A stretch of 63,580 nt of DNA, the filler included, from Bipalium vagum (lineage: Eukaryota), in the NCBI GenBank assembly GCA_037834085.1. It is 3 parts of 3 records of this genome, joined end to end, with 100 filler letters (N's around TTAATTAATTAA, not from the genome) between each part and the next. Parts side by side here need not be neighbours in the genome. Positions count along the whole stretch, not along the records: positions 1 to 26,661 come from JBBMKC010135109.1; 2 more parts are not named here. The stretch is one strand, 5' to 3'. Positions 12,321-63,510 of this stretch are shown piece after piece (the first letter of the stretch is position 1; each line of letters opens with the position of its first letter). The notes under the pieces were generated by a model, which worked only from the letters and a program-made list of their open reading frames with translations, did not search any database and was not told where the DNA came from. Position numbers and translations under genes: made by a program.

Positions 12321-15300
12321 CTTATCTTATTATTATCTTATTAAAATAAGTAAGATATTCAAATCTTTTATCATTAATATTTAAAATAATAAATCATAAT
12401 ATCTTATATTCAAATTATTTTTGTAACATAATTATAACAGATTCCAGGGAATTTGATTAACATTCTAAATAATATTTAATAATATTATGGTTTATGTCTG
12501 TTATTTTTATATTTTATTAATATTAAGCTAGATGTTTTTCTGGGAATTTTACAGGTCCAATGGATAGGCTAATCAAGATCTCAAATTCTAATAAGCCAAC
12601 AGTACTGATTCTTGACATTCCATTGCCCATAGATGAGGCCATTTTGGGCAGCATTTGTAACTGTAAATATCTCAACATTTCCACAATCGATTCCTTGAAT
12701 CTGGAAGAGAGCAGTTTGTTAAGCAAAGTAGCGACAATCATTTATCAAAACGATCTCAACAAAGTTGACCTTTTGAAGTTTAAATCGCTGAAACACCTCG
12801 TGAAAATCGGACCCAATTTGATGTCGAATGATGTACAATTAATCACTGAAAAAAGTAATATTAAAAAATAATAACACTAATTCCATTTCATAAGATAAAA
12901 TATTGAAAAAATATTATTAATAAAATATCGTGTGTGATTTATAATTGTTTGAGCGGGCAGAATTCCAAGATTGAAACTAATAATCATCTGGCACGCGATC
13001 TCAACATGGAGCCATCTGTAAGCGTCTACACAATTCGGTAGCGGAGAAGAACAAGTTAATTGAGCCCAGTCCCAATCTGTTGTCTAATGTTCACTCTTTA
13101 CACCAGTGAGTTACCCTCTCAGCCACACAGAGTCTAGCTCAGTAAGAGAAGTAGAAAGAAACATAGGTAAATAGATGGTGGGAAGCCCTAACCAAATTTG
13201 TAATTTTCAGCAATTTGACGACCAACTCTGTTTTAATTTAGATCGGAATTGTCTTTATTAATACTTGGTTATTACTACTGCATTTGATAACATCATACCA
13301 ACCTCATTCATTTTTACCACCAACATTCCCTGATTGCAAAGCGCCATCGTAATTATCTATAAGTAGTTATTAATTAGATGAATATGCGGTAATTTTAATT
13401 TACTTTCTCTTACAATTACATAGTCCTACTTCTGCTTTCATGTGCGTATCTGATTGACAATCTTTTACCAATAAACTCGGATAATTAAATATGAAATTTT
13501 TATGAAAAAAGATTGGTAAATATTAACGAAAATAAATCGGATTCTTTATTTTTTGTTATACTGTTTCTTGATCTGTTTAAATTAAGCAATTTTATGTTTC
13601 CAAGGAAACAGAATGGCAAATTAACACTCTTGATTATATTAAGAGTTTTATAATTAATAAATTTTTTATATATAATTAACAAAAATATAATTTCAATGAA
13701 TGAATTTTTGTAATGCAGTAAAACAAAATTTGAATATTTAGAGGAGATAAAACTTTTTCTATTTCCTATGGAAACTAGAGTAAATAAATAAAGGATTAAA
13801 ATGTTAAGGGATTAAATCTCCAAAATTATGTAAACGTTTGTATGAATTTATAATAGTAGGTCTTAGCATTTTGGTTTGTTTGTTTTAATGAATGAAATAT
13901 CATAAATGGCAAAAAACAAAAATCGTTATTTCTAATTTTAAAAAAATGTTTGTCTTCAGAGAATATTTTAAAAATATTTTTCTTCATTAAAATATTTTTA
14001 TATTTCACGCTGTTAGAAAACTTTATCGATACAATTTTATACTTATATTGTTATAAAAAATATTATTTTATGTAATGAGTCAAGTTTAAGGATTCTTTCT
14101 ACAGGAAAAGTATCATGTATTCCTAGGTGCAAGCTTAAGAGAAAGAAGAAGATTTTTAGCTAAAAAATAAACTCCAAGTTTCAAAATAATAACAATAAAT
14201 TTGTGCATATTATTAATATGTAGTAATATTAAATTCATTAATAAACTTATTCAAATCTTTTTATTTTTAAAATTGTTTAATAAAAATAAAATAGTTAATA
14301 GTTAAAAAATAAATAAATGAAATTTTATTTATTTATTAGAAGAGTTTATTTATATTTTTTTTCTTTATATAAGATAATTATGTTTTTATAATATTCAAAT
14401 ATAACATATTTTATTAAAAACTTTTATCGATTTTACAAAAAAATACATTTATTAAGAAGCGTATCCGGATGAAATATTTTAATAATAATAATAATAAATA
14501 AATAGAAATTTGGAGGGAAATTAATAAAAAAATAATCCGATTTTATCATTTATATATATTTTTATATCTTTATATATATATGTATGGAAAAGTAATAAAA
14601 TATATTCAATTAATATATTCAGAAAATAATAATTAGGAAACAATACTTCATGTGAATGATAAAATAGGCATTCAGTAACCATCGCAACATGGAGTAACTA
14701 GTGGCTGGTGGTGGCAGAATATTATGCATCTCATCTCTGACAATTTTCGGTCAGAGCAGATTGAGAGACTTAATCCAGAAGGCAGGTTACGTGAACAATT
14801 ATCATAATTGGGCAGAGAGGCCAGTTCCGAGATCTTAACATAGGTTGTTTGTAGACGATGCTACTGGTGTAATTATTGAACTCAGATGATTTACCATAGT
14901 CTTGTTAACAGTATTATCCTGACTGATTAATTTTCTGGAAGATGCTCTGCCACGATAAATCTTCAACTGGTATTCGCATCATTCACCTGGGCGTTTAATC
15001 GACATATAATTTAATTCTCATCAACAAACTTTTTTCCTTTTCAACTTTGTAAAGGATTACTATAATCCGCTGTGTAAAGCTTATTACGTAAAAATCGCAA
15101 ACATTTCATTTATCAAAAATATATAAAATTATTTTTTTGAGTATTTTTTCCGCGTTAAATTTTTGTGGAAAAACATGAATATATTTTTTATAACTTTCTT
15201 TTGATAAAATATAAATCTACTGATTCCAATTATAATGGAAAATGTACAAAGGGATTTGCAATTTATTAATGCTTCAATGAGCGGGTATTGCAGAATTGGT

Positions 15301-18040
15301 GTACTGTGAGAAGTTGAGGAAAAAATAATAAAAATATTAAAATTGATTTTTTCTAGAAATTTTATTATTATTATTATTTTATTTCCAGATATCGCGTTGA
15401 GCATCATCAGTGCACCTAGTGTCGATGAAATTGCTGACACAATAATTTGCCTCATCCTCAACCTATATCGGCATACGTCGTTCCTATTAAAATATACCAA
15501 TGATTTCAAGCAAATATTTGAATGGAATAACGATATACAAAGTGGACATAAAGTACGACCTATTAAAGGTCAGGTTTTGGGTCTGGTTGGAATTGGTATG
15601 TGATGTTTAAGAGTAATAACTTTTTAAGTTATACAATCCAGGTCAAATTGGAATAGCTGTTGCAATCCGAGCTCGAGTATTTGGGTTTAATATCAAATTT
15701 TACGATTCTACCATTCCAGCGGGAAATGATTGGTATTTGGGCTTGAAAAGAGTAGATAGTCTGTCCCAGCTTCTTTCAGAATCTGATTGCGTATCAGTAA
15801 ATATCGATCATACATGTGACTTTAGTCAATCAATAACTTCTAATTACTTTGAGTACTTAAAAAAAGGTAAGAAACTATAATCTGTATTTTTATTGCTATT
15901 ATATACAACTACTGTAAATAAATTATCATTGGATTCTAAAATATATGAAATCATCTGTAGTTTTGTCACGAAAACATAAGAATTATAAGGTATGTGTATA
16001 TATAAGAAGAATAAATTATTACACTAAATTTAATGTTCGCCTTAGATAATTTTATTAAGGTGGCCAATAGATTTCCGTAATTTTGCATATGCTTATAATG
16101 CTATTTTTTAACACAAATAGTTTTTTGTTATAAACTCTTATTTTACTTAAAAAGCTGTAAACAAATCAAAATATTTTTTATAGTATTGATATTTAATTGT
16201 ATATTTTCCTGAAAAATCTGGCTCGAGATTAATTTGATGCTGAGCTATATAGCCAACAAATTGTTAAGTTATACCTCAACGGTATTCAACACTAAATACT
16301 AGGCTACACGTGGTTATTTTAGTTAAAACAAAAATTAACAGTCTAGATATAGAAATCCTATCACATCCAACATGTAGGCCCATTCTAGTGACATTAGATT
16401 TCCAATTATTTCGATTAATAACCACGATGATTAAAACAAGGAAATTTCCAGATCCACACTAATTCTTTGCATCTAAGAATGTGTTTTGGTATCAAAATGG
16501 TCTCTTATGGTTGGTCAAAAGGTGGTTAAAGACAATTAAACATGACGGTTTGTATTTCGATGAATAAAAATCACTCTTCTAATTTTTGTATTCAGTAACA
16601 ATAATATACTGAAAATTCCGGAAACTTAAAGGCCATCCTAATATAAAATAAAAATTGTGACGGAAGTAATCATTATATCAAGTGATTAAGAGAATTTCTT
16701 ACAACTATTTTTATTTAATATTTTATTTTTTAAAATATGACATTCATATTGATTGTGTAACATCAGCCTTGAATTTAGTAAAACAAATAATTATAGTTTA
16801 TTTTCACTGAAAATTTATCATTACGTTCTAATTAATACATTAAGAAATTAAAATAAAAAAATTTAACAGTTGAAAAAAACATAATAATTATAAAAGAAAA
16901 AATAATAGTTTTATTTCAATGATTCTTCATTTAAATATCGAAAGTATAAAATATAAAATATATAATGTCAATAGAATATATTATTATTTATATATTAAAA
17001 TTTTATATATTAAATATTTATATATTAAAATTTTATTTTCAAGAAGTAATAAGGAATTAGCTGAAATTCACTCCATATTTTCAGTTTCAGTTTTTATTAA
17101 TCAATTACAGGAATAATATTATATAATTTGATATAAAATAAATAAACAGAAATCAAAAATTGTTAGTTCAAAGACAAATTTTTAACCTTGAAGAAATACT
17201 AAATTTAGACAAGTTCTTCTAAACGATTTTCTGTTTGAATGGAACACAGCCTTCGTAATGGCAAACAATAAATAATTGATGATCATTGAATTGGAACTTA
17301 CCCTACTACTCTACCAATAACTAATCTTGTTCAAATCCTTTGTAGTTCTGTTTATTGGTCGAATCACTCCTGTCTTTAACTGGTCAGGTGAGAATATCGC
17401 ATATCAGTTGAGAAATTTAGTTTCCATTTCCACAGTTTTCAATGTAACATGATCAAACAATTGTTTAATGTCTTTCAATTTGATTTCTCCATTCTGTTTT
17501 GTAGATATGTATATGGCTTCTACATTTTGAAAAAGATATATCATTTTATTGAGAATAAGATATTTTTTGATTTTCCACTTTAGATGGAATTTCAAGATCA
17601 CCTTTCATTTCTACAGTTTCCCTTTTTAAAAATAAAAGCAATTAAAAAGGATGATATAAAATATCTCAATGAAGTTGTGTAGAAATTATTTATTTCTTTC
17701 TATAAATATATTGGAAATTGTTATGAAATATAATAATAATAAAAGTATAAAATTGATATTACACTTTAATTAAACTCCCAAACTGCGCACGAAGAAATAA
17801 ATAGAGGTGAGCGTATATTTTTGCAGGAAAGTGTTAATATTTTGAAAAAGATGAAATTTTTAAGATCTTTGTGATTTTAAGATTTTTTTTCACAGAGACA
17901 GTAGTGCAAAATATTTTATGCTCTTAATATTTGGTTAAAAAGAATGTGCAATTTAATATTTATACTAATATTTAATATTTATACTATATAATAATAATAT
18001 ATGATAATATATAATAACAATAAATAATAATAATAATAAT

Positions 18041-18073
<33 letters not shown>

Positions 18074-21000
18074 TAATCCTTCATTATTTTATGAATCATT
18101 ATTATACGAGGGTAACATAGAAATTGAAAACAATTCCAAAGTAGAGTGTAATATAAATAAAAGGGGCTGTCGTCTTAGTCAAGATTTTCCAAAAAGCTGC
18201 AAGGATAATATCAAAGACCTGTTTTTTTGTTCTCACAATAATAACTAAGTTTTTTTCTCAATGCTCAAATTACAATCAACATTTCTTCAATAAGCCATTA
18301 GACGAAATGATCGTTTTTCTCTTTGAATAAATTCCTTAAATAGATTTCGCATCCTAACGAAAATTTAATATCTTTAAATGTTGTAATATAAATATGTTAA
18401 CGTTTTTTGTTGAGTTTCAATTTTGAATATAATCTCATCTGTCATAGCGAAAAGGAAATGAAAATTTACTTATTTAATCAGTAACAATTTCTTTTAATTT
18501 CTTGTACTGGTAATAATAAAATAAGTCTTTAAAGTGATTTAAGTACAGAACCAGATAACGGAATAAAAATATTTTTTATATTTATTTTAGGCTGTATAAT
18601 GAAATGAAAAATGTGATTATTTTGAACAATATTTAATTTCTTTTTTCTCATTCTTCTGCTTCTTTGACATTGTTTAAATGATATATAATAGAATATCCAA
18701 TCCACATAGTTTGCTAAGCAGCCTAAAATCGTGTTCACAACCATTTTCATTTCCAGGTATTTGTTATCAACCTTTCAAAATTATCTTACCTCGAGAAACT
18801 TCTGTTTTGTGCTTATCATGTAACAGTTGATTGGAGTACTCCATCATCAATGAAATGCCTAGTAATAAAGTCTTTCCCCAAATGTTTGCTTTCATTGTGA
18901 AATTTACAATACGATATTTGATAATCATTTCTGAAAAGGTCAATAATTTAAGAATACTGGTATTTTTATCTTACTTCTATGTATCATTTTAAAGATCCTG
19001 ATTTGCTTAATAAGTTACCATAAGCCACTTAAACAATTTGTTTATTAAATTAAAGTTATTTAAGTTTTAAAATTTCTCATTTTCTATTTATAGTGTTACT
19101 TATTTTTGCACTTATGAGTTAGATTTTGACAAAGTTTCACATCACTTCCAAATGTTCAGATTAGATGAAAACATATGATGACGGGATAGTGACCTCATTT
19201 AGGTTTCTTAAAACAAAACATTACAAAAAATTGACAAAATTAATCAGAAGTGATAAATCTATAATGATTTAATTTAACTCGTGACTGACTCCTACGCTTA
19301 TGGCTGGGTTTCTATTCTCATTCAAATAAGAAACTCAAAAAGTCGCTAAGTTTTATTTCCTATAACAGGATTCAATACAAGATTTAAAAATGGTCGTGAT
19401 GATTTAAATGACAATGAAAAGTTTGGATGTCAAGATGCTGAAAATTGTCCATAAATGGTGGAAAAAGTACGTGAAATCATTGCTCGTGAAAATAAAATGA
19501 CTTTGATAATATTAGTAGAAGAATTAAATACAAGTTTCTTTATCATTTGGATAGTTTTAACCAACTATTTTAGTAAAAGAAAGGTTTATGCCAAACTTGT
19601 TTCACATGCATTAAATGAAAACAAAACACAGCTCGTGTTGATATTGGAAAGATCTTTTCAACACTGTTTTAAAAAATCCAGATTCTATTGATTCAATTAT
19701 AACTGGTGATGAAACATCTTTTTTCAAATATAATCCTAAAACAAAGGGTCAAAGTAATGAATGAAAGTTGGTAGATGAGCCGAAACCAAAAAAATTGCGT
19801 ATTTTAAAATCAAGAATTAAGACAATTCTTATTACTTTTTTGATTCGAAAGTTATATTCCAAAAGGAACTTGTCTCAAAAGGTCAAACTTATAATGCTAA
19901 ATATTATTTAAATGTTTTACATCGTTTGTGGTCAAGAATTGTTCGAGTTGAGCTGAATATCAAAAAGAAAAGCAATTTTTATTGCACGATAATGCCCCGC
20001 CTCACAAGACCATAAAAATATGTATCATCGGATGTCCACTATATTCACTTGATCTATCATCCTGAGACTATTTTCTATTCCAAAAGCTGAAATTGACATT
20101 GAAAGGTGTATTTTATGATGATATTCAAGCTATTCAAGGAGCCTTGACACGAGTGCTCAAGAAAATTCCTTTAAATGACTTTGAAAAATTTAAGCATGCA
20201 CTAGCTCACCGTGCCATATCTTGTATTGAATCACATGGAACCTTTTTTGAATAATTTTGAAGTCTTTCAGTTATAATATCACAAGGTGTGTATATGTACA
20301 TATATATTGTAAAAAAAATTTTGATTTTATGAAAAACTTTTTAAGTATTAATGATTTGATTATAACATTATTTTTCTTTTACCTAAAATGAAAACTAATT
20401 TAATCGTTACATATTCAAAAAAAATATGCATTTCCCTCCATATTTCGAATTTCATAACAATAGGGATGAGTATTTTAACCAAACGCAATGCGATAAAGAT
20501 TTTTATGCTCTTCTTTATTTTAAAATTCCCAAAATATAGAAAAGTTGAAAAAATATTATCATATTAAAAAAGATAAACATTGGATATGATAAAGCCACTT
20601 TTATGGAACACTCATCGATTTAGTTCCATTTTAAGTGTTTCAATTTTACTTTGGTTTTCACATAAATAGAAATCGATTGAAACTTAATTTAAATGCCAAA
20701 GGTCATTTCGGTGTTTATTTAAATAAATTGTCGTTTGGCATGCGAGCCTTTTTATTAACTTTATATTTATTTACACTGTAAATGCTGTAACCAAAGATTT
20801 AATATTTTATTATTACTTCTAGTTATACTTTTACATATTTCCCATTATTCTTTGATGATTTAAAATAAGCACATATTCGGTGGCATTTAAATCAAACAAA
20901 ATCTTATCATTATCGTGAATATTATATCATATTATTGGATATATGTAACTAAATAATAGAAATGTAACTAAAGTTTTATTTCAGATTCTTATTTTATCAA

Positions 21001-24000
21001 CATGTCATCAGTCCCTACCATGCACATTACCAGTAATGTTTTACATGTTGTCGAAGACGTAATTGGCGGGGCTGTCATTAATGCTTCTTGTATCGACCCA
21101 GCAATAATTGAAGGTTTGAGAACGTTATTTTTTGACTGATATGATATGTATAATAATATATAGATTTGTTGGAGATTCACAGCAATAAGATTACAATAAT
21201 GCCTATTCAAAATGAGTACAGTTATACATGTTTAATGGAAATGAGAGAACAGGCTCTTTATGAAGCTCGAAGAGGTTTACTTAACGGTTCTTTACAAAGT
21301 CTTCGAAGCTGCGTAAACAAAAATGAGCTGATCCATCAAAGTTTAATGTCAGAAAATCTTTCAAGTAATCCTCAATTTGGAATTCTGAATATTCTTCATA
21401 AAAATATTATATTTGACAAATCTAAGATTCATTGATTTCCATTTCCATCAGGGACTCGACGATATTGAATTTTCGATATTACATCTGGTGCATACCTTGA
21501 ATATGTATTTATATTTTCATGTCTACATAATTTTTCAGTAATCTTTCATTAAGCTATATTTCGTTCACTGTGATACAATGCTTAACAATGCAAAGTCATT
21601 AATCTTACATAATGCTAAAATAGTGTATCTGTAATTAATTTCTCTTGAGGACACCCGACTATAATTTCAATAGACAGACTTTGGCAACTATTGCATTGGT
21701 TTTCAGTATAACTGATACGCCACTTCTAATGTAGCATAATCTTTCTTCCTATCGTTTTGGTCTGAATGTCGAGCATTGTTTACCGATTGCTGCGTTAAAT
21801 TAGCTGTGATTATTGGTTTTGCTGGTGGCATTAGCTGCAAAAGTGACAGAATCGTTACAAATCCCATTAAAGATATGATATATAATAATTATACCATCCA
21901 TTATTTCATCCAGACTTTATTATAAGTCAACAACTAGGTTAGCTGAACATGAAAAGAAAGAAAAACTGTGATGATCATCGTCGATTGTTTCTTTGCAGTT
22001 TGAATTAATAAGGTTTGAAAAATAAATTTATTTTTGTGAGAAAAAATAATTTTCTTTCTTCACATAAAGTATACTGTTTTCTGTGTTGAAAAAATAATTA
22101 ATGTGAACTTCAACACGAAAGTTAAATTATTATTACTATTATTATTATTTTTGAATTATTAAAAATTATGTACAAAATTCCCTGCAAATGTGATTGTATT
22201 ATTGATTTCAGGGACTTATCTGCCATCCTTTATACATTTATGATAGTGTTTTATATATAATCACCAAACCGAAGTCATCACTATGAAACCCTTACCACTT
22301 ATAACACTTATCTCCACACTTGTTACATTTTTAAGAAAGATTACCTCCAAGAATTTTATTATTTTTTAAATCAGACTTCATGATTGATATTATTTTTTAT
22401 ACAAACGCACGGTTGAATCAAAAATTTTCAAATATTGCGCAATCAGTTGCACAAATTAAAATTTTTATTAAATCTTTACGCATTTATACACTTTGAACTG
22501 AATCTATGCCAATTTTTATTAAATCTTACTCGGGTTAATCTGAACTTTTATGAATGATTTAAAATAAATAACAACAATTATCAAAAAAGTCAGCTCAAGA
22601 AAACTTTAGAGACGTGATTCTCCACTACATTTATGTGCAGTCCAATTTTTGAATTTGCCACCAGATTTTATTAAAAATGTTTATTATAAAATATATTATT
22701 TGTTTGGATAATACAAACTTGGTTTGAAAAAGAAAGCTTCACGAAGATGATGACGACGTCAGCAATGTCAGGCTAAGGAGCTCACGCCCAGTTCCAGTCA
22801 ATATACTAAAAATAATACGATAATAATACGATTTTATTTCATCGGAAATTTAATGACAATTTCTAACAATATTGATTCTCATATATAATGGAAAATGATG
22901 TGGTTGTTCCTGAGCGCCTGGTATGTGGTTGTACATTTTCCAATAGTGCTATGATTCCGAACAAGCTAAACGCAAATTGTTGACTAACCATGCTTCGTTA
23001 AAAGACATAAGTTACTTTCAAATATTATTATCGGCAAAATTAAAACAAGCAAACGTTTTGGAAAACAATTCACTTAGTGAACAAGGTTAGATATGTTCCT
23101 ATGAAATTGCCGAATTAATTGCGGTTAATTTAAAACTTAATAACTTGGCTGAAGAAATAATATTACCAAGTTTTTGCGAATGGTTAATTATATAAAATCA
23201 AGTCCATTAAAAGTCGCAAAGTAATTTGAGCCAAGCCATGGAAGATACGAATGCCTGGTATTGCTCTCAGATTAAACTTAAACAAAGAAGAAGAATTATT
23301 TTCGCTTTGAAATAATCGAGATTTTATCCACAAGCATTCGAAGAGTCAATCAATTCGTTTTTTATTAAACACACGCGGCTGAGCTGCTAAAATTAAAGTC
23401 TTAAAAATATTATTTCCATTTCCTACACCTCTTCGGATCTTCAGCATTAAGAAAAATAAAAATAGATTAAATTTAAATTAAGAAGACTTAATTTTCAGGG
23501 TCTTATCACTTTTACGTCCAAGTGTGAAACCAATTATAACCATGAAGTTCAAATTTCCAATTAATTTGTGGATAATCATTTGATGAATCATAATTCGTAA
23601 CTCATCCCAGCTTTGTTAAAGCAACATTCTCCTTTATTCTTTCAAATTATTTTATTTTACATTGAAAATGATTTTCATTAACTATTTTACAGAATGAAGT
23701 AGGTGTAAGTGTGAAATTGTTAGAAGTATGCCTCGAAAAAAAGAGGTTAAGAAGAGATGACTATTGAACTTCAATCAATTCATTGATTGAATGAAGAAAT
23801 GTGTGAAAATCGAACTAAGTGATGGTTTTATGTTTAGAAATTTCATATTTGAACTAATAAAAATATGTGATTTTCTTGGTTGAAGTAACTCGTTTGTTAA
23901 GCATTTATGAAAATTGTTATGTTACATATTTTCTGGTTCTAATTCAATTTTTAAATAGTTATAGATGGAGAAATATATATGAAATAAGCACCATGTAGTT

Positions 24001-26274
24001 ACATTCATTCTCAAGGGGATTTTTGACCGAAATTACTCCTCGAGAAAAGATCATCTGATTTTTTATGTATATTCAAGTCAAAGTTAAAATGATCTTCAAC
24101 AGACAAATATTTCTCAATTATCGATTAGTCTGTGTTACGAACTCAAATGTAGAGAAAATTTAGAATTTTTCTTGTTTGGAAAACCTTTTTTGCATCAAAT
24201 TGTTACAACTGACGAAAAAATTTTTTTTGAAAATCCTTAATACAAAAAAACATTCAGTAAGCATGTCTTGCTTCACTAAAAATCATCAAAGAGGAGCATT
24301 TGTGAAACTTTAAAATGAATCTAGAGTGAAAATAATTGTGTTAAAAGTTTTTGAACCAAGACAAATAGTATGTCAAATCAGATAATGAGTGAAAACGATT
24401 AGAGTAGTGAACATTGGTACTTAACACCTCTTTGCTTCCTGATACATTCATTAGACCTTTCTCCTTCTGACTACCATCAGTTTCGATAGTAAGGTTACTT
24501 GTAATCTTTAGAAGAAATTGAAAAGTGAGTCAAGGACTAAGCAGCTACCAAAAACTCAATGTTTGAATTATATATACTTTACAGATTATATTTTTATAAA
24601 GACAGAATTGTGAAAATGGCTTACTCTCAACGCACAAACTTAATAACATCGTTCGTTTGTGATTAAACAATTTTTCCGCCAGATGGATGCCAAGGGCATT
24701 TTGAAATGATTACAAAATCCAAATAAAAGAGCAATCCATACTTTTTCTCAATCAATATGCTAACGATCAGTCATGTTGTGAACACGAAATGGGGTTTTTA
24801 AAATGTAACTAAACTGAATAAAAAAGGCTATGAAACATCTTAATTATAAAAAAACTTTTCCATTGTTCTCATCACACTTCTGCCATCGACACAATAAATC
24901 ATAAACTCAGTTTTCTGAGAAATCTGGAACTGAGACTTGGATTCATTCAGCTAGGTTTTTACTCCTGGAAATCAAGTTCCATGGAAGCAATGGTTATTCG
25001 AAAAACAAGTTCAGAATTCTCAAGGTTGAAAGAAAAATCTTGAAGAGGAAAAGAACAGTTATTTGACCCACTTCATGTGAACCCTTTAAAAACAAGAAAA
25101 TGTCACGGTTTAATTTTGTTCCCATCCAGATCATAAGATTCAAACATATTAGGTAGGGCTTAAATCTGAATTTCACTTGGATATTCTGTGATATCGATCA
25201 TAAAGTCTTGAATAAGTTCTCAGATGCCTTGTTTGAAGAATTGGAGGATAAAATATTATATATATAATAACAATCTCACGTAGATCATCACCATGTGAGA
25301 CATACAATATCAAAGAGTACAAAATCACGTCTCAATAGAGTTAATTTCATTATTCCTTAGAATAATTTTAACCTAAGCCGTTCCGGAAAGTCAATGATAG
25401 CTTTTACTTTAGAGGTAGGACTTATTTTTGAAGAAACACGATATGTAGAGAGGAAAGATTTCATCTTTTGTCTTTAATTTTTCAAGGAAAGTCTGATAGT
25501 AATGTTTAGGCGTATAGGTTGGCTTATCATAATTTTACCCAGATAAATATTATAAAATATTCAAATTTTTTTCTGTTACTTAAACTTTAAGGGTTAGAGA
25601 CTCACGGGAGAAGAAAAAATTCTTTGGATAAATTAAAGGTCTATTTAAAAAATCTCTGTCTTTAGTAATTTTTAGAAATGAGCCAACATGTTATAAATCA
25701 TTTTCATTGGGCATTACGAGGGTTTATGAAATGAAAATGCCTATTGATTGATAACAGGTTTATCCTTTAGAACAGGTAATGATAAACATTCGTATGATGG
25801 TCTCGAAAAAGGTTGTATTGTAATATTTAAAATTTATACAAAAATAGAAAGATAATCGAGACAAGAGGTGTTAGTTGGAATAAATCTATAATTTTTTGAT
25901 TTTTATGGTGTTTATTAAACATGGCCCCAAATGTAATAGTTTTAAAAATATAACCTACGGGGTTTTATATGATGCCAAACTATAAAATATTATATACTTG
26001 GCAATTTAATGTTCCATTATAATTATCTTTAAATGCACTCTTTATAGAGTTATATTACTGTTTATATATATATAAAATAAATTACGTTTAATAATTCATC
26101 ATGAAATAAAAATCAGTACGCGATCAATTATTTACGTTAATTTTTATAATGATTTCAGAATCAAGATACCCTTCAAATGGTCAAGACATTGAAGTATCGA
26201 AAGCATTCTCCGTGGAATCATTGATATACAATGCGAAGCAGTCTGATGTGAGGATGAAAGAATCCGACCTATAA
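11143..26274 (+). CDS. CtBP: THAP-domain C-terminal binding protein (CtBP), 8 coding exons, about 587 aa
   Basis: Exons 11143-11301, 11699-12125, 12555-12854, 15389-15595, 15642-15866, 20985-21113, 21164-21364 and 26159-26274. All introns are GT-AG, phases are compatible, total 1764 nt. The last exon is inferred; the unspliced alternative stops at 21435. Confidence 0.85.
11699..12125 (+). CDS. CtBP: CtBP exon 2: THAP C-terminal part plus Asn/Ser-rich linker
   Basis: TTCAG acceptor; LRVCSGHF..GEKKEGDVP completes the C2CH finger; donor G|GTAAG at 12126. Confidence 0.88.
12263..12320. repeat. (AAT)n microsatellite
   Basis: Long perfect AAT run in CtBP intron 2. Others lie near 18020-18072, 47756-47801, 47902-47970 and 63511-63570. 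Confidence 0.95.
12555..12854 (+). CDS. CtBP: CtBP exon 3: substrate-binding domain
   Basis: PTVLILD and DLLKFKSLKHLVKIG align to CtBP PLVALLD and DLEKFKALRIIVRIG. Confidence 0.8.
15389..15866 (+). CDS. CtBP: CtBP exons 4-5 (46-nt intron 15596-15641): NAD(H)-binding Rossmann fold
   Basis: SVDEIADTIICLILNLYR; GQVLGLVGIG|QIGIAVAIRARVFGFNIKFYD (GxGxxG plus Asp); LLSESDCVS. Confidence 0.9.
16055..16641 (+). mobile_element. Internally deleted mariner in CtBP intron 5
   Basis: TA|TTAAGGTGGCCAATAGATTTCCG ... CGGAAACTTAAAGGCCATCCTAA|TA TIRs; remnant EILSHP...DFQLFR motif. Confidence 0.75.
18690..18960 (-). mobile_element. Probable hAT transposase remnant
   Basis: Fragments FTMKANIW, ITRHFIDDG and CLAN resemble hAT TTDIW, TAHFID and CFAH motifs. 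Confidence 0.4.
19350..20260 (+). mobile_element. mariner transposase pseudogene in CtBP intron 5
   Basis: RFKNGRDDLND, YAKLVSHAL, IITGDETS, LLHDNAPPH, YSLDLSS*DYFLF with multiple disablements. Confidence 0.9.
20985..21364 (+). CDS. CtBP: CtBP exons 6-7 (50-nt intron 21114-21163): catalytic region and C-terminal helix
   Basis: SYFINMSS...IGGAVIN; IMPIQNEYS...EMREQALYEARR...SLRSCVNK aligns to CtBP EMREEAAREIRR...SLKNCVNK. Confidence 0.85.
22592..23762 (+). mobile_element. Degenerate hAT (Charlie/Buster-like) element in the last CtBP intron
   Basis: CLVCG..FSNSAMIPNKLKR, SYEIAELIA and AEEIILP motifs. Ends resemble CAGTGGTTCTCAAC-type TIRs. Confidence 0.65.
23990..24560 (+). mobile_element. 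Highly decayed mariner
   Basis: VCYEL, FLHQIVTTDEK, DLSPSDYH motifs. Confidence 0.65.
26159..26274 (+). CDS. Putative terminal CtBP exon with an eh1-like motif
   Basis: TTTCAG acceptor, phase 1 matching donor A|GTAATC at 21365. Reads (K)SRYPSNGQDIEVSKAFSVESLIYNAKQSDVRMKESDL*. Confidence 0.55.
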
Positions 26275-26661
26275 GCGGCAAAAATATAAATTATAAACAA
26301 TTATGATTAACACCTTTATTATTTTGTGTTGCTAGATTGTTTGCTACCAATTTTGTTATTAATATCTTCAATAATAAATTTTTATATAAATTAATTCTTT
26401 ATTGTCGAAGTTTTAATGAAAATAATTATACAACAGAATTTTATATTCTTATATAAAGGTTGCGTGAAAAGTTCTGAAAGCGAAAAAGAAAAAACGTATA
26501 TTTTTATTTAAATTCATATTATTATATAACAGAGTCTCCTAGCAATTCAACACATTTAGTCCAGTTGTTCTCCAACAATTCTGTCATGTTTGAAGTGAGA
26601 TTCCGGAAGGTCTGCAAAATACTGGTCTACGGATGCCATAGCTTCTTCATTTGATTTAAAA

Positions 26662-26761: not shown

Positions 26762-28063
26762 ATTGTAGATTGCGCGACGTGTGGTCTGGCATTATCATGG
26801 AGAAGCAGTGTACCCTTTCTATTGACCAAGGCTGGGTTTCATAAACCGCCATTAATTTCTTTACAACCTAATAATAATATTCTTTTTATCTAAATGTCAA
26901 GTTCAAACAAAAAAATAAATAATATTTTGAGAAATATTTATAATTGTAAGCTCCAAAATTTATTCTACAATAATATTATAATTTGTAATATTTCTCTATT
27001 AATTTGATCTTTATAATTAATTTTTTATGTCATAGAAAGTGATATTAGATTATAGGTATTTAATTTGGAATGTAAAAGTTAACTTTTTTCTAAACAAAAG
27101 AAATTACTGTTTATTACAAAATAAAATTTATTTAAATTAACTTATTCTTATGAAATTATTGAAAAAAAATGAAAATTGTGTTGACAAAGTTTTAGAATTA
27201 TTCAATTTATGGAAGTTAATTAGTTCATTAAAACGTATATAATATCCAGATCATACAGAAAAATTATATATTTCTAATATTAGTAATTACAAACTAAATT
27301 TTTATTTTAATTTGCTCTACATTTAAGAAGAATACTGGACTTGATTCATAAATTACAAATGATCCATAAGTCTATATGTGAAACTAAGTAAATAGGTCGG
27401 ATTATTTATGGAGAAAACGGCATTATGGCTTTATGTTAAACTCTACGGTCAATCACTGCTTTAATGATATATATTTACTAAAATAATTAATTTTCTCACT
27501 TAAAATTCATACTATAAATTTTACGACAGGTATTAGCAGTAAAAATATAATTAATTTTATAAACAAAACACAATGAACAACCTTATAAAATTTCCTATTT
27601 AAATTTAGTTTTCTTATGTATTGATTAGTTCGTTATCGTTGGTGTTTTGCATAAATAATCATTTCTTAACTATTTATAGGCTGTAAGACATTTTCAATTT
27701 TTATAAAGTATAAATTTTATATAAAGAATATGTAATTAATATATAAATACATAAAAAATAAATATTTGTAATTTTTTAACGTGAGATTTTCCATTTTAAG
27801 ATTTTCTATTTAAATTTAATTTTCTTGTATATTGATTAGTTTTTAACTTTACTTTGTGACTGACTACATAGTAGCGAGGTTGCACAGTAACGAAATTTGA
27901 CTTTTTAAATTTTTCTAATGTTGGATTATCTTCTTGTCACAAATTATATTTTAATATATAATATTTCATTTCGATTTAACTATTTAAAATGATTAGCGGT
28001 TTTTTGTATTATTTTTAAATTCTACTTCAACTTCCAACAGGATTTTATTGGTATAAATTTCAG

Positions 28064-30581
28064 ATTTTATTTAAGCAAGCATAATGGACGAGTTATCAAC
28101 TTACAACCAAATTTAGGGAATGTCGAACTCTCGGCTTATTTCTTTCCTTCTTGTACTGGACAACCCTTACTTGTGGCCGGAGGCGTATCCAGTAATTCCA
28201 TGAATGGAAGTCCTCAAAACGATAACTTTCCTATTGTAGCTCCATCGCGTGACAGCAGTGGAAGTTTCGGAAGTCAGGTCAGCCACACCGCCGTTTCTGC
28301 TCCTCCTAGTGCTACCTCAACGGCTGTTGGAGTTTTGAATCCTCTTCTCAATAATGATCATACAGCGCTTAGTGGTGGTTGTAGTGCTAATATAAAGAAA
28401 TATATCCTTCAGGTATGACATAATAGATTGTATGAAGTCAAGTGTCTTATATTAATATACGAATATTAATAATGAAATTTTGAATTGAAAAATCATTTTG
28501 AAAAAAAGTGAAAATTATTTTTATAGTTTATCTTCATTTAAAAAATTGAAAAAACATTATTTTATTTAACTCTATTTTTTATTCACATTCTCATTGAATT
28601 GTTAGTTCCAGTATTTATTCCTTGAAATTAAAATATTGAGCAATGAATAATATTTGAGATAGAAAAACTATTTACAAAACAGTGAATTTTTGTATAATTT
28701 TATTAACCTGGTCTTCTTAACCCGGCCTTCTTGTCTGTTATCTGTTTTTTATAATCAATTACAATTATGGCTATGAAAAGCTAAAGGTTGAGGTGGAATA
28801 AATGAGCCTTACAAATTTTTTCAAAATTTTAAACTTACTTTGCCCACCTCATTTAATTGAAAAAATACTGTGCTGAGAGTGAGAGTCTAATTTTTTATTA
28901 TATTTTATTGGGTTTTTTATTTAATTTAAGAATCAAACATCACATAAAATACGAAGGAAATTTGCATTGAACTAATAAATATAGTATATTTAATTATTAT
29001 TCCTATTCTTTCTTCAAAGTCTCGATGTAAGTTAGAGACTTAAGCTCAAATTATACCTTAAGTTATCTTTAACAAATAATTTTATTGTTATTTAAAATTG
29101 ATATTTTTTCAAGGTTTCCACTTATCAAATGGTTATTTTAATGAAATTCAATAAGAAGACAAAGTACAGTTTCGAAGAACTATTAAAAGAAACCAATATT
29201 CCGGAGAGAGATTTAACTCGTTCTTTATTGTCTCTGGCACTCAGCAAGTGGTCCCAACGAATTCTTATCAAAGAACCAAAGACAAAATCGACAGAATTAT
29301 TGATGACAGATATATTCAGTATCAATGAAACATTTACTTCAAAGCATTATAAAATAAAAGTGATTTTCTTTTTAGCTATTCACCTCAAAATTATGATATC
29401 TTTATTTACAAATAAAAATCATTAATTTTTGAGAATAAATAAATATATTTTTAAAAATATTTTAATGATATTGGGATCAATAATTAAGTAAATAGATGAT
29501 TACATATTATCTAACTTTAGCTGAGTATAAATGTGATTTTGAATTATTTATTATTATTAGCGAGGAAAATATTTTTTAATTAAATTTTTTTTTAAATTTA
29601 TATATTTCTTCCTGTTATAATTTCTACTTAAACAAGTTTTGGATTTAAATTGGAAATGTAGAAATGATATTTCAGCGATTTCAGTTGAAAATGATATATG
29701 TATAATTTTATTATAAATTATAAATACATTGTCGATAGTAGCCTATAAGAAAGGTTCTTCAAACTGAATACAAATTTCTCAGTAAAAATATTATACTAAT
29801 TCTAAAGATAGGTTTATGATTAAGCACGCGAACGACTTTTTCCATTTCAGTACAACATTTTAAAGGTTTATAACCGTCTTAATCAGCACAGCTCATTAAT
29901 TAATAATGGACATTTACAGAGATTATGTAAGATATCTAGCTTTACTTTAGTTTTTCTCAACGAAATGCTTTCATTATCTTCAATTTTGAAAGAAAAATTT
30001 TAGTGTTTAATTCAAGGGATCTATTGCCGTTACTTATTCCAGTTCATTTCTTATTCTGTTTCTACAGGTATTGTTCTAAACAGAGAGGTGGTCTTAAAAA
30101 AGAATTTTCAGAAAATCTTCATTAATGATTAATTTTTTCTTTTAACTTTATAAAAGGGAATAAAAAGTCAGTTTAATTTAATGGTTTTTTAAGTTCATTG
30201 TTTTACATATCAAACATTAGCTTGTTAATCAATTGAGTAGAACTTTAAGGGAAAAGTTGTTTTGATGTTACTAAATTTGATATATTTCTCACTATTTAGG
30301 TTCAAAATATCACAATAAAAGAAAGTGAACCTGAAAGAAAAGAAACAAAGACCAGAGTTGATGAAAATCGGAAGTATGTGATAGAAGCCACTATCGTGCG
30401 AGTGATGAAAGCAAGGAAGACTTTGACTCACAATCTGTTGATTGCTGAAGTTACAGAACAACTGAAGTCTAGATTCATACCGACACCACAGATGATTAAG
30501 CAAAGAATCGAATCTCTGTTAGAGCGAGATTATCTGGCCCGATCTGAAGACGATAAGAAGACATATAGATATCTCGCCTGA
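28064..30581 (+). CDS. CUL3: Cullin-3, last three coding exons (28064-28412, 29114-29359, 30300-30581); 5' part missing
   Basis: FYLSKHNGR..LQP; KYILQ|VSTYQM; ETNIPERDL; ESEPERKET..VDENRK; neddylation motif IVRVMKARK; IKQRIESLLERDYLAR...YRYLA*. Splice phases are consistent. Confidence 0.93.
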
Positions 30582-34798: not shown

Positions 34799-35108
34799 AT
34801 GAGCAATTTGAAAATTAAAGTATTTAAATTAATTAAAGTTTATAAAATACCTAAATATGCAGATTAATAGATGGAGCACTGTATCATCATGGCACTGGAA
34901 TACAAAAGATGATGTTTGCACAGTTTGTTCTTTTAATTTTGAAACCGCATGCGAAGAATGTAAAATGCCGGGCGATGATTGTCCAGTAGTCTGGGGTGTC
35001 TGTGGTCATTGCTTTCATATGCATTGTATTGAGAAATGGATTAGTAAAACCAATCATCCCACCTGTCCGCTATGCAGGAAAACTTGGGATTTTAAAAAGG
35101 AAAATTAG
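34799..35108 (+). CDS. ANAPC11: Anaphase-promoting complex subunit 11 (RING-H2); probable exons 34799-34819 and 34863-35108
   Basis: W..V..W.W..DD.C..C...F..AC..CKMPGDDCPVVWG.C.HCFHMHCI.KW...CPLCR..W.FK. A 43-nt GT-AG intron restores the N-terminus MSNLKIK|INRW. Confidence 0.95.
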
Positions 35109-42120: not shown

Positions 42121-44254
42121 TAAACAATATTAATATTAAATAATTGTTTGTGAATATAATTTTATTATATGACATATGTGTAAAATATTCTGGAAAATAT
42201 ATTATTATTATTATTATTATTTATAAAGAACAAAAATTATCATGTTTCAAATTTCGTTGATGTCAACAATAAATATTTATTTTGATTTAAAAAAAATAAT
42301 AATAAATTCTGTTATTATTTTATAAAGACGAAGAGAAAAAAAAATCAAATCATTTCGGTTGATCTTCTTAATTTTTTTTATTATTCAATTTTAAAAATTG
42401 AATTGCAAATTAAATTACTTTTCACAGGTTCATTGAAAACAAGGGTCTCATGTGTCAAGTTTGAAAATTGTAATTTGTGTTTAAATCAATAATTATTGTC
42501 ATTATTTGGTTTGCCTGCAACTTGTTCGGACTGTCCACATGAAAAAACGCGGTATCGTTCCTAGTCAAATCAAATACCGAATTTGTACTCCCATTAAATT
42601 AGGGATCAATTAAACTGATAAAGTAGCTACTATTGACATAGTCGTCCTCAAATATACATAGGCAAAATTGCAACAGTAGCTCATGTCTCATGAGCAGTCG
42701 ATAGTGCGTGTTTATTTGGTAATAAATAAATATATACTTCTTGTTACAGAGCTAGGGTAATTGAGTAGCAATCAATGCAAATAATATAAACATATATATA
42801 TCTGCTTCCCGATAATAAAACAGTAGAGGGAATAAAAATTACTGAATATATGACTCTTATCATAGGCGGCGAGGGCTGCTATCAGCCTGGCAATCAAGTT
42901 GGCCAGCAGAGTAATTACTGAATCAATTAACGATAAACCTTAAACATGGACTCAACTTTTTGTGTGGACATGGGAGCAAATAAACAGCGAACACAGTAGG
43001 AGTTACGGGCTCATTACATGAAAGAGAGACCCCACCTGCGCATATGGTCCGGATCTTTTATCAGACAATCTTTCTGTCACGATGTGCTATTATATAATTA
43101 AATAGAACATATAATATTTTTGATTCTCCAATGAATTTCTTGAATTTATTTCAACGATTTCTTCAAATTTCATGATTATTAATTTTAATAATTTCTAATT
43201 ATTAATATTTCAAAGTAACTTGAACAAATTATTATTGAACTCTTAATATAAAATATTTTCAAAATAATGAAAGTGTGAAAATCAAGATTACCAAGATCAA
43301 CAATTGAACATTTTGTTGGAATTAAAACAAATTGTATATTAATTATGATGAAAAAGAAATAAAATTCAAACAAAGATTGAGAATTATTAAAAAATTATTT
43401 ATATTATTTATATATCTTGACTGATACAACTAAGATTCATTAAAATTCTGTTCAATGAAAGAATAATTTCAATCTGATATAAAAGACAATATTTCCATAT
43501 TGTGGTATGACAGAAACAAGACAATTTTAATTTCTGATTTTTAAATTTAAAAAATTAAAAAAAGAGAGATTTTTCAATTATGATAGTAAAGTTGTTTTTA
43601 AAATGATTTTTAAAAATTCAAACAAATAAATATATATATTATTTTTCCATAAATATAAATCACTGGCTTTACTAGATCACAAGAGAACTTGTTTTATTGA
43701 AAAGACAGAGAACAGAGATATAGTTGAATAGGTTTATGGTTAAAGAAATATGATAACATTAATTATTTATTTTAATTATTTCTATACTTTGATTTTGATA
43801 TTGCTTCACATAAAAAGAGAAAAAGAGAAAACTAAAGTACTTTCCCGAAGTATACAAATGGTACTATTAGGTGGCGAAAGGTGTTAAGACTCACATCTCA
43901 CCCCCTACCGGAAGCACTGTCAATACGAATTGAATGAAAAAAAACAACAATAAATTTACTAATTTTTGTAAGTGTAAATATAGGTAAACAATCCTAGGAT
44001 TATTAAATAATAAATTAAACCTTAATTTATCTTGTTACGATTACTTCTATCAGGCGACAAAGCAAAGATCCATTGATTTTGGAATTGAAATGTATTATCA
44101 TAAACGAATATAATAAGGACTGAAGGAAGAGGTACATGGTAGTTTTAAATGATATAAAATATTTTAAAAATTAACATGCTTATTAGGCTTGTCCAGAAAC
44201 TTTTTGAACGAACCGTGTATATTTATTTATTTATTAATGAAGAAATAAATAATT

Positions 44255-44800
44255 TTCTTCGTATCATGGGTTGATCCGGGTCAGGATTCAAAACAGACAG
44301 TAAGGCAAAATCATTTTGGAAAAAAAGCAATGCTCTGCGTTTGGTTGGATCAAAAGGGTATGGTATATCATGAGCTTCTTAAACCAGGTGAAAATATTAA
44401 TTCTTCTCGGTATGAAAAACAAATAATGGACCTGAACCAATCTTTGATTACCAAACGTTCAGAATGGGCAAAAAGACATCGTAAAGTAATTGTGCTCCAT
44501 GACAACGCGTCGTCACATACATCAAAAGGAGTCAAAAGTGTCTTAAAAGATCTATCCTGGGAAGTACTGACCCACCCACCATATTCACCGGATCTTGCTC
44601 CTTCGGATTTCCATTTGTTCCGGTCGATGGCGTATGAAGATGTCCAAAAATGGGTCTCCGAATGGAGAAGAAGTTTTATGGGATGACATCCACAAATTGG
44701 ATGGAAATTTTTTTGAATAAAATATTTTTATGTATCATTTGAAATTTTCGTTTTTTGTTTGTTCCAAAAATCTGCATTTTTTTCCGGTACACCTCAGTAA
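44255..44800 (+). mobile_element. mariner 3' half
   Basis: MLCVWLDQKGMVYHELLKPGE, VLHDNASSH, HPPYSPDLAPSDFHLFRSM; TIR remnant TTTTCCGGTACACCTCAG|TA. Confidence 0.92.
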
Positions 44801-47470: not shown

Positions 47471-47753
47471 CTGGACAGAAATATGAATAATTTAATATTT
47501 ATTTTTAAGAAAATTTTAAAGAAACATTTGTTTGGTCAAGTAAAATAAGTTCATTAGCTTTTACAAAAATAATAAAGATCAAATATAAATAAATAATAAA
47601 GAAAAATTATGTAAATAAGACAAAAATATAAAGCACGATAAATATAAATAATAATATATAATATAAATAATAATATAATATAAATAATAATTACATTATT
47701 TGATATGTATAACACTATTTAAATCTCATTTAATAAAGTTTTAAGAATTAAGA

Positions 47754-61224: not shown

Positions 61225-63510
61225 CTATTGTGAATAATTTCATCAAAATTTCGAACTCAAAGTTCCATCAATATAACAGAGATTAGCAAAAATACCCATA
61301 TCAATTATTAAAATTGAATCAATAAATTACAGTGACAATAAACAATTACTGACATGTCACTTAATTATTTATTAAGATCCACTATTAATAATTAATAAGT
61401 ACTCCTACATTGAAAATTTAGATTATTCAACAAAAAAATTTTCAATAAATCAATAAATAGTTAATTTTTCGGCTAATAGAATAACATTAAAACAATATTC
61501 ATATTAATGTAATTAAAATAAAACATTGACAAAGATTCATAAAGAAAAATAGTTTTTTATGAACGAAACAGTAAATTGCTCTCTAAGTTTTACTCCATCA
61601 AACTGATCTAAAACTACATGTCTTCTACAAGGGTTTTAGTATGAAAGTCTGTCTGGGTGACTCCAACATTTCTAAAGAGAAGACTAGAAGATGTTGAAAC
61701 ATAAACAAGATTTACAAAAAAATTTAAAAAATGAAATTTTCTTAATTCATTAAAGATTCGAAATAATAATTATTATAGATAAATAATAATTAATTATATT
61801 AATTCTAAATAATTCATTTCAGAAATTATTTATATATTTTCCAAAAAATTTAATTTTTTAAACTCCTATTTTAAATAACAGTTCTAAATAATAAATATAT
61901 TTTTATTAAGAGTTAATTGAAGATAAAAAATCAGTTGAAAATCATGAAGAAATTCTTTTGTTCATTTTGTTAATTTTATCATATATAAAAAATTGAATTT
62001 TAAGAGAATATTGTTGAATTTTTTCAAGAGAAAAATCCTGAGGATATTTATTGAAGATTTTACTTACTTTATGCAATTGAAAAAAGATCATTTACAGATG
62101 AGACAAAATATGTTTGTCTCAATAATAACAAAGCTCGACTAAGTTTTGAATTAATTATAATTTTTAATAAAGAAAAATAATGGAACAATCGTTGAAAATA
62201 GTAAAGCAATTGAAAATTTTCAGCAATCGAAATTGATTTTCATATTATAACTGTTAATAAATAAATAAATTTTCTTAAAAAAATAATCATTGGTTTTTTC
62301 TGAGCTTTTAATGTGAACTGAGTGACAGATCAGGTTTCAAATTCAGGACACGTATTTATTTATTTAATATTTGAATTTGAACAAATCAAAATTTTTGACA
62401 AATAAAATTTCATTAATTGATTTTCAACTGGAAATATTTTAGCCACTGTCTATTTTTGCTTAATGACCGAAAACTTAACAAAAGAAATGATTTTAATTTG
62501 ATCTATTATTGACAACATCACTTTTGCTTATCAATTTCATATCTGGATTTTTTTATTTCAAGTTCAATTTTTGCTTTTTTCTGAACACAAAATATTACAA
62601 AAAATATTATGTAGTAATTGAACATTTTTATTACAAAATTTAACATATTATTTATTTTATTGTCGCCTATTTTAATGAATATTGATCAGATAAATAAATA
62701 ATTTTTAATTAAACTACCAATCAAATCCAAAATAAAAACAAGTTGACAGCGTGCTCATATTATTATTATTTTTTATTATTTAAAATTAAATTTTTGGTGA
62801 AATTAATAATATCATATCCAATTCTTTTTTCAATAAATTAATTATTTAATAAGTAAATAAATAATTAAAAAGGTTTCATTTGTGCAATAATCAATTAATT
62901 TCTTTACTCGCTAAAATATGAATTTTACTTTAAGGCTTTCTATTTCTGTTATTTTTCTATTTTTCTGCTTTCCGACTATTAACCATTGATCATAGACATT
63001 GACTTTGAAATTAAAACTTCATGTTTAGCTTTCCATTTTGTTATTAAATTAGATTCAGACACTGTTAACTTTGGACCGAGACTCAAAATCGGTAGCAAAA
63101 AACACAAATTCTCTTTTTTCTCACGGGACACAGATTAATATAATAGCATTTTTCACAATTCTCCCATTTAAACAACCAAATAAATGAGAAAAATGTTTTT
63201 AAAAAAAACCTTTTCCTCATTTCTCCCCATATAAATTTACAAATGACTTGTTTTAATAAATAATTAAACAGAAAAGAAAATTATTAAATTGATTGCTAAA
63301 GACATTTTGACAGTCTTTCCATGGTTATGATGTAACCAGTATTAATTGGTCAGACAAACTTCGCTTTAAGAATTGGTGATCAACAAAAAACACAAAGAAT
63401 GATTTGAATGAAATAAAAAATTAAAATCATAAAAGATGAATTTCTGTTAATTAAAATTTTAAATAAATATAAGAATTTTAAAAATAAAATAAAATATTAT
63501 TCTTAAAAAA

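Follow-up and report, generated by a model that had tools for sequence, protein, structure and literature searches.

A decayed THAP-CtBP protein of Bipalium vagum with a conserved eh1-like tail and predicted Groucho binding

Among animal co-repressors, the two main ones to be recruited through short motifs are CtBP and Groucho. A 63,580-nucleotide stretch of the Bipalium vagum genome (assembly GCA_037834085.1; three contig parts joined end to end, hereafter the window) carries in its first part a gene encoding a THAP zinc finger, a decayed core derived from CtBP and, in its last coding exon, a short tail with the engrailed homology 1 (eh1)-like motif FSVESLI. We consider it fairly probable that the product represses genes by binding DNA through THAP and recruiting Groucho through its tail, with the decayed core acting as a spacer or dimer scaffold. 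The best reading of its history is that, after duplication, the THAP-bearing copy swapped CtBP-type repression for Groucho recruitment. If true, a CtBP-derived protein losing its own cleft and gaining the motif of the other co-repressor would be a clear co-repressor swap after duplication, and a testable function would be provided for an unnamed protein of schistosomes, liver flukes and tapeworms.

The last exon and its counterpart in a second gene copy

All positions follow the numbering of the window, and the gene lies on contig C135109 (part 1 of the stretch). A model of eight exons, in which every intron is GT-AG, gives a single open frame of 587 amino acids with its sole stop at the end. 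Exon 8, the last coding exon (26159–26274, + strand; 116 nt, 38 codons plus stop), encodes a tail predicted to be disordered. It follows an intron of 4794 nt, which runs from a phase-1 donor, A|GTAATC at 21364/21365, to an acceptor (...gatTTCAG|) ending at 26158, and it closes with TAA at 26272–26274. The motif (26206–26226, + strand; residues 566–572 of 587) lies outside the folded domains, in the tail after the last CtBP helix, with a THAP finger present in the same protein. A possible polyadenylation signal, AATAAA at 26373–26378 on the + strand, is found 99 nt past the stop and is a weak one (3.6 such hexamers per kb here). The preliminary description had presented 26159–26274 as an orphan exon of this gene; its coordinates, acceptor, phase, motif position and read-through stop all check out, and the assignment to the THAP-CtBP gene holds, as the eight-exon frame closes at the TAA of this exon and a paralog keeps it.

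The paralog is a second gene copy in the same genome, spread over five contigs (C223242, C196571, C225096, C202460 and C257123), which we infer to be one gene because they match the exons of the window one to one. Its exon 8, on C257123, is 68% identical in amino acid sequence over 34 of 37 residues (E 2e-7) and retains the acceptor (CAG|AATCAA), the stop position and the frame without indels. Across the 38 codons including the stop, 8 are identical, 16 differ silently and 14 are replaced, giving proportions of synonymous (pS) and non-synonymous (pN) differences of 0.86 and 0.205, while the seven motif codons hold five synonymous changes and no replacement. Judged by this comparison, the motif codons are under purifying selection. 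The exon also has a GC content of 0.39, against 0.21 and 0.19 in its flanks. A sequencing run that covers intron 7, behaves as DNA and may be the one from which the assembly was built agrees with the window over exon 8; the 21364–26159 joint is absent from this run, which by its DNA-like nature is uninformative on splicing. A DNA match on C200987 was dropped as an AT-rich similarity to the 3' flank of the exon, and no sequence match to the exon-8 peptide was found in the PDB.

An eh1-less isoform, arising by read-through of the exon-7 donor to a stop at 21435, had also been proposed. The read-through (21365–21435, + strand, with TGA at 21433–21435) comprises 23 codons in the window against 15 unrelated codons in the paralog, whose exon 7 has the donor A|GTAAT at the same place and phase; because these codons are not conserved, the isoform is unsupported. 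That exon 8 goes unused, or appears only in a minor form beside an isoform that terminates at 21435, is a very improbable account of the locus. In its favour are the off-consensus GTAATC donor, the 100 YAG sites downstream of that donor, several of which open frames as long, and an AATAAA at 22021. It is countered by the unconserved read-through and by a paralog that keeps donor, acceptor, frame, stop position and motif at a divergence where synonymous sites are near saturation. Exon 8 is likely, from the two copies compared, to be a conserved and constitutive last exon.

The eh1-like word among homologs and the Groucho pocket

Within the six frames of the window, the pattern FS[VI]xx[IL][LIM] occurs in 8 of 74,964 stop-free 7-mers (ca. 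0.3% per 37-residue stretch), and the loose ELM-type pattern in 128 of 74,964 (ca. 5% per 37 residues). FSVESLI fits the broad form [FYH]x[IVM]xx[ILM][ILMV], which we take to be the ELM-type pattern; as this is common, the motif alone is weak and conservation carries the claim. A homolog search found 109 proteins, of which 63 were scored, the remaining 46 being THAP-bearing fragments (95–345 residues) and two unrelated dehydrogenases. Among 30 THAP-CtBP models from tapeworms, flukes and monogeneans, 18 have an eh1-like word within their final 70 residues, where shuffles expect 1.0, compared with one of 31 other or unnamed full-length THAP-CtBPs and neither of two Macrostomum models. Nine of the twelve models lacking the word stop before the last CtBP helix, leaving 18 of 21 among those that extend beyond the core. 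Two of four further representatives that pass the core end, P0115 and P0120, carry the word.

The words themselves vary by lineage: FSIDTLL and FSIDTLV in tapeworms, FGINSLV, FGVNSLM and FGINSIV in schistosomes, FGVNSLI and FGVNSLV in Fasciola and Echinostoma, FCVNALM in Calicophoron and FCITSLV in opisthorchiids. In an alignment of 13 rows the Phe is present in all 13 and the Leu at +5 in 12, while in the flanking columns the commonest residue reaches at most 7 of 13. The conserved columns are those of eh1, namely F, V/I at +2, L/I at +5 and an aliphatic residue at +6. Conservation of the motif, a check proposed at the outset for orthologs, is borne out among homologs: by the paralog, whose motif codons differ only silently, and, as an eh1-like word, by 18 of the 21 parasite models that pass the core. 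This genome also encodes a more distant pair of THAP-CtBPs, each of which carries a phase-1 donor past the last helix. In one of them, on C231433, a GC-richer phase-1 exon ending FSIKSLA follows ca. 1 kb on; a pattern defined after this exon had been seen gave no match in 203 kb of other DNA.

Groucho genes are present in this genome, and two of them match the model at every one of its 22 contact residues, including F661 and E677, the pair that marks Groucho pockets (PMC4943189). Exon-8 peptide residues 4–37 were modelled with the WD40 domain of a thrips Groucho as stand-in, from single sequences without an alignment, in three runs and with three controls. The predicted complex scored 0.64 in three runs and the best control 0.01; the runs had at least 73% of contacts in common, with a predicted local distance difference test (pLDDT) of 51–52 for the partner. 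The best-placed predicted contacts are those of the motif F, V, L and I in the WD40 pore. At the score mark applied, passes numbered 51 among 78 solved microbial pairs and 2 among 108 mismatched ones; the eukaryotic figures were 39 of 65 for solved pairs and 2 of 126 for unrelated ones, in calibrations composed without peptides.

Several observations weigh against recruitment of Groucho by a conserved tail. The strict eh1 consensus, FS[VI]xx[IL][LM] (PMC4943189), is missed by FSVESLI at the last position only (Ile), is fully matched among the 18 homolog words only by the four FSIDTLL words of taeniids, and is departed from in flukes, which carry G or C at position 2. Mesocestoides P0077, Spirometra P0085 and Clonorchis P0024 extend past the core without the word, the last being a second model that diverges from the first a few residues ahead of the motif, and P0114 and P0133 also pass the core end without it; bad gene ends are the likely cause, although some tapeworms may truly have lost the motif. 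Many of the 18 models come from near-identical schistosomes, and they presumably represent about seven families rather than 18 events. The C231433 word ends in Ala, and an FSIKSLA exon was looked for in the partner copy and not found, which leaves the word in one copy of that pair only. The splice from exon 7 to exon 8 is read from sequence, and the binding of Groucho is a prediction. The docking suggested earlier does yield a pore pose, yet with a stand-in Groucho, no alignment and controls lacking a Phe-to-Ala change, and since a like complex, TLE1 with eh1 (2ce8), has already been solved, the pass may reflect memory of, or likeness to, that structure.

Decay of the CtBP core, gene history and alternative readings

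The remaining exons, all on the + strand, describe a protein with an intact N-terminus and an eroded middle. The coding part of exon 1 (11143–11301) contains the ATG and the first part of the THAP finger, a half-domain that scores below the Pfam THAP cut-off (E 1.8e-4; 22.7 bits, cut-off 23.9), is 80–94% identical to most THAP-CtBP N-termini and differs from the paralog by 30 synonymous and no replacement changes. Exon 2 (11699–12125), conserved in the paralog on C223242, adds the end of THAP (second C and H) and a low-complexity linker. With the C2CH zinc ligands present in the model (C5, C10 and the exon-2 C-x-x-H) and 85% identity to an annelid THAP, the finger is by its sequence intact. 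Exon 3 (12555–12854; paralog on C196571) encodes a decayed substrate-binding domain in which the PXDLS cleft is replaced, exon 4 (15389–15595) the dimer helix, keeping the equivalents of C134, N138 and R141, and the start of the Rossmann fold, and exon 5 (15642–15866) part of the nicotinamide adenine dinucleotide (NAD)-binding domain, where the splice completes GxGxxG and the D204 equivalent is kept. Exon 5 matches Pfam 2-Hacid_dh_C (PF02826) above the cut-off (E 1.4e-7), and this match, together with the core's identity to an ordinary CtBP and the structural matches of a homolog given below, shows a CtBP-derived D-2-hydroxyacid dehydrogenase fold. Exon 6 (20985–21113; paralog on C225096) spans the region of catalytic R266 and E295, both replaced, and exon 7 (21164–21364) lacks H315 and W318 and ends, after the last CtBP helix, at the phase-1 donor A|GTAAT kept in the paralog.

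Residues were mapped by alignment to human CtBP1 numbering, the cleft region aligning loosely. The PXDLS cleft comprises A52, F53, C54 and V66 in that numbering. The cleft Ala corresponds to A203 of the worm protein (10.1101/2020.06.09.143248). In the window protein the cleft AFC...V has become CNC...S, and unrelated letters occupy it in 13 of 13 aligned tapeworm and fluke models. G181, G183, G186 and D204 are retained, as are the dimer or tetramer residues C134, N138, R141, G210 and L215; R97 is lost, as are R142, R163, R171, R184 and W318, which also belong to the dimer or tetramer set, and the catalytic R266, E295 and H315, now S, D and I. A "dead CtBP" had been proposed, and this stands as far as the equivalents of R266, E295, H315 and W318 are concerned, but both GxGxxG and D204 are still in place. 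The core shares 31% identity with an annelid THAP-CtBP, the reference to which the cores of tapeworms and flukes are 16–23% identical; in these parasite cores GxGxxG is broken at one or more glycines and the dimer residues are gone. In a predicted Echinococcus structure the core nonetheless finds CtBP1/2 as its best Foldseek matches (E 5e-20), while the tail (552–631) has pLDDT below 50 and lies off the core, with a short helix at 615–618 on the motif. P0075, of unnamed origin, and P0105, from Macrostomum, are THAP-CtBPs with the cleft kept, catalytic residues lost, ca. 50% core identity and no eh1 word seen; they are possible intermediates. Nematode CtBPs also lack one of the three catalytic residues (PMC9907507).

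Two ordinary CtBP genes lie on other contigs, with 72–75% identity to the annelid protein and with cleft and catalytic motifs intact. Their tails are proline- and alanine-rich, as has been described for flatworm CtBPs (PMC9907507). A THAP exon was looked for and not found, both in the ca. 16 kb upstream of one gene and along the entire contig of the other, the fragmented assembly leaving room for a more distant one, and five of five THAP exon-1 matches are on contigs lacking these two genes. A fifth and most divergent THAP-CtBP copy, on C221719, has a THAP exon 75% identical and a 3' end beyond its contig. CtBP, THAP-CtBP and Groucho genes all occur in pairs (C196163/C202717, C135109/C223242, C149176/C112120+C231433, C213110/C11019 and C203813/C242094), a pattern suggestive of genome-wide duplication; at the protein level the ordinary CtBPs hardly differ from each other, whereas the members of the decayed pair are ca. 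73% identical. A profile search of 1.84 billion representatives returned no close full-length relative of the window protein, the best local identity being 38% among new matches of at least 150 residues with a CtBP core.

In an LG+F+G4 tree, this genome's decayed cores and those of the parasites group together (ultrafast bootstrap, UFBoot, 86). Set against this, a mixture-model tree with 11 of 41 rows left out gives the decayed group no resolution, nor does a THAP tree. Recent duplication from the genome's own ordinary CtBP is rejected by the approximately unbiased (AU) test (p=0.011, with a long-branch caveat). The parasite genes are likely orthologous to the window gene, a point which the trees do not settle, and the simplest history is a single old duplication in flatworms; as that single origin is not forced by the trees, the motif tail may have arisen more than once.

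In the proposed scheme, whose DNA-binding and repression steps are inferred along with their historical order, an ancestral THAP-CtBP gene would have duplicated, one copy retaining CtBP function, apparently without THAP, and the window copy retaining THAP. The finger would bind DNA, as expected from its family, and the decayed dehydrogenase core would act as a scaffold, possibly as a dimer presenting a pair of fingers and a pair of eh1 tails. The F, V, L and I residues of FSVESLI are predicted to dock in the WD40 pore of Groucho/TLE, and the recruited Groucho would repress the bound genes. With C. elegans CTBP-1a, rescue needs the THAP cysteines and THAP alone partly rescues; the cleft mutation A203E did not detectably change rescue (10.1101/2020.06.09.143248), so that a THAP-CtBP can already act without its cleft. 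In fly cells, eh1 repression domains are Groucho-dependent and CtBP-independent (PMC9890238). The earlier idea of one protein linking two co-repressor systems is not supported, given the replaced PXDLS cleft and the finding that two other genes encode ordinary CtBP, and with its cleft lost the window protein should not be filed as a CtBP co-repressor. The accompanying remark was that eh1 is normally found in DNA-binding factors and not in CtBP; because this protein carries its own THAP finger, the motif is here in its usual setting.

A link to CtBP could persist by another route, whereby the decayed core hetero-oligomerises with ordinary CtBP through its NAD-binding domain and so brings THAP and a Groucho-binding tail to it. 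The genome has ordinary CtBP to pair with, the equivalents of GxGxxG, D204, C134, N138, R141, G210 and L215 are kept and the two copies share 87% identity over the NAD-binding exon, but the replacement of R142, R163, R171, R184 and W318 and a core of 31% identity to an ordinary CtBP make such a bridge unlikely, as do parasite models which lose dimer residues and GxGxxG glycines yet keep the eh1 word. The wider form of this proposal, that across flatworms a duplicated CtBP turned into a THAP repressor whose tail binds Groucho, and that here it still pairs with ordinary CtBP via an intact NAD-binding surface, is doubtful to the same degree; if true, it would provide a DNA-bound subunit wiring Groucho into CtBP oligomers. 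It is distinctly unlikely that the conserved word is an amphipathic helix for some other partner, be it the protein's own core, another WD40 protein or a degradation factor. The fluke words and the final residue of FSVESLI depart from the strict consensus, which would fit this, as would the ca. 5% chance of a loose match per 37 residues; against it, the conserved columns are exactly those of eh1, the tail is unpacked from the core in the Echinococcus model, and the pore pose scores 0.64 against 0.01. The reading as a THAP repressor recruiting Groucho is therefore preferred.

Surrounding sequence and known systems

Conserved non-coding sequence surrounds the exons. Blocks at 10777–10948, 14701–15116, 17264–17329 and 21759–21961 are 79–86% identical to the paralogous locus, and much of intron 1 (11302–11698), together with a high-scoring segment pair (HSP) holding 12940–13362, ca. 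70%. The blocks are conserved although synonymous sites are near saturation, and from this comparison they are probably regulatory elements. No Rfam match was found at E<=0.1, and a nested antisense gene was rejected, the blocks in introns 3 and 5 showing stops and frame-breaking indels; in the intron-7 block (21759–21961, strand unassigned, 80% to the paralog, two copies found in the genome) short frames are open in both copies with mixed substitutions. Taken together, these features make the intron blocks probably non-coding.

Elsewhere in the window, 1959–2213 (+) encodes a neuropeptide precursor of NPY/NPF type (Pfam Hormone_3, E 7.6e-7). Its N-terminus is signal-like, and its amidated end, apparently interrupted by an intron, reads GRQRF-G-K, with Q where invertebrates usually have P. 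Further features are cullin 3' exons at 27993–30578 (+; Pfam Cullin and Cullin_Nedd8), an APC11-type RING-H2 reading frame at 34833–35105 (+), the last exon of an ETS-domain gene at 47491–46649 (−), cut by the stretch end, and an open frame of 192 codons without a Pfam match at 61256–60681 (−). A very high-copy repeat (26450–26661; depth >20,000 against ca. 30) occupies the contig end just past the last exon, and a mariner-type transposase relic lies at 44249–44683, with similar-looking relics elsewhere in the window.

THAP-CtBP fusions are reportedly already known from Nicholas, 2008. C. elegans CTBP-1a and other THAP-CtBPs share with the window protein an N-terminal THAP belonging to one subfamily, with a CtBP core behind it, and THAP matters for worm function (10.1101/2020.06.09.143248; PMC8816384). 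The proteins of worm, annelid, echinoderm, hemichordate and amphioxus differ in keeping the AFC...V cleft and 52–81% identity to the annelid reference core, whereas the window protein has lost the cleft, retains 31% and carries the tail word, found near the end in one of 31 others. According to a survey of CtBP evolution (PMC9907507), Protostomia have a single CtBP gene and the catalytic triad is conserved outside nematodes, a picture with which the decayed THAP-bearing copies clash. Full-text searches, with subscription papers and the figure supplements of PMC9907507 outside their scope, found neither the combination of THAP-CtBP with eh1 nor a decayed THAP-bearing CtBP duplicate in flatworms.

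An eh1-like word also figures in Drosophila Hairless, a protein associated with Groucho and CtBP alike, which has a CtBP-binding tail. It is an adaptor with ligands for both co-repressors, whereas the window protein is CtBP-derived, carries a DNA-binding finger of its own and no longer has the PXDLS cleft. The eh1-like motif of Hairless binds Groucho (PMC1310626). Similar in layout are the eh1 factors (Engrailed, Goosecoid, Fox, T-box and Odd/Bowl), which combine a DNA-binding domain with F-x-[IV]-x-x-[LI]-[LIVM] outside the folds; odd, bowl and unc-4 place it C-terminally, as here, and eh1 motifs are thought to be convergent in DNA-binding proteins, C-termini included (PMC1310626). THAP and CtBP are not among the domain partners given in the accessible text of PMC1310626, and neither word occurs in that of PMC4943189.

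Further counterparts are uncharacterised tapeworm and fluke proteins named "THAP-type" or "Zinc finger C2CH", such as Echinococcus A0A068WBK5 and S. mansoni A0A5K4F713 (Smp_150100 of the latter species being a truncated 390-residue model without the tail). They share THAP, a decayed core and a terminal eh1-like word, and differ in being more decayed (16–23% core identity, GxGxxG broken), with long inserts in flukes. Set beside these systems, the window protein is predicted, from sequence and modelling, to act like an eh1 repressor.

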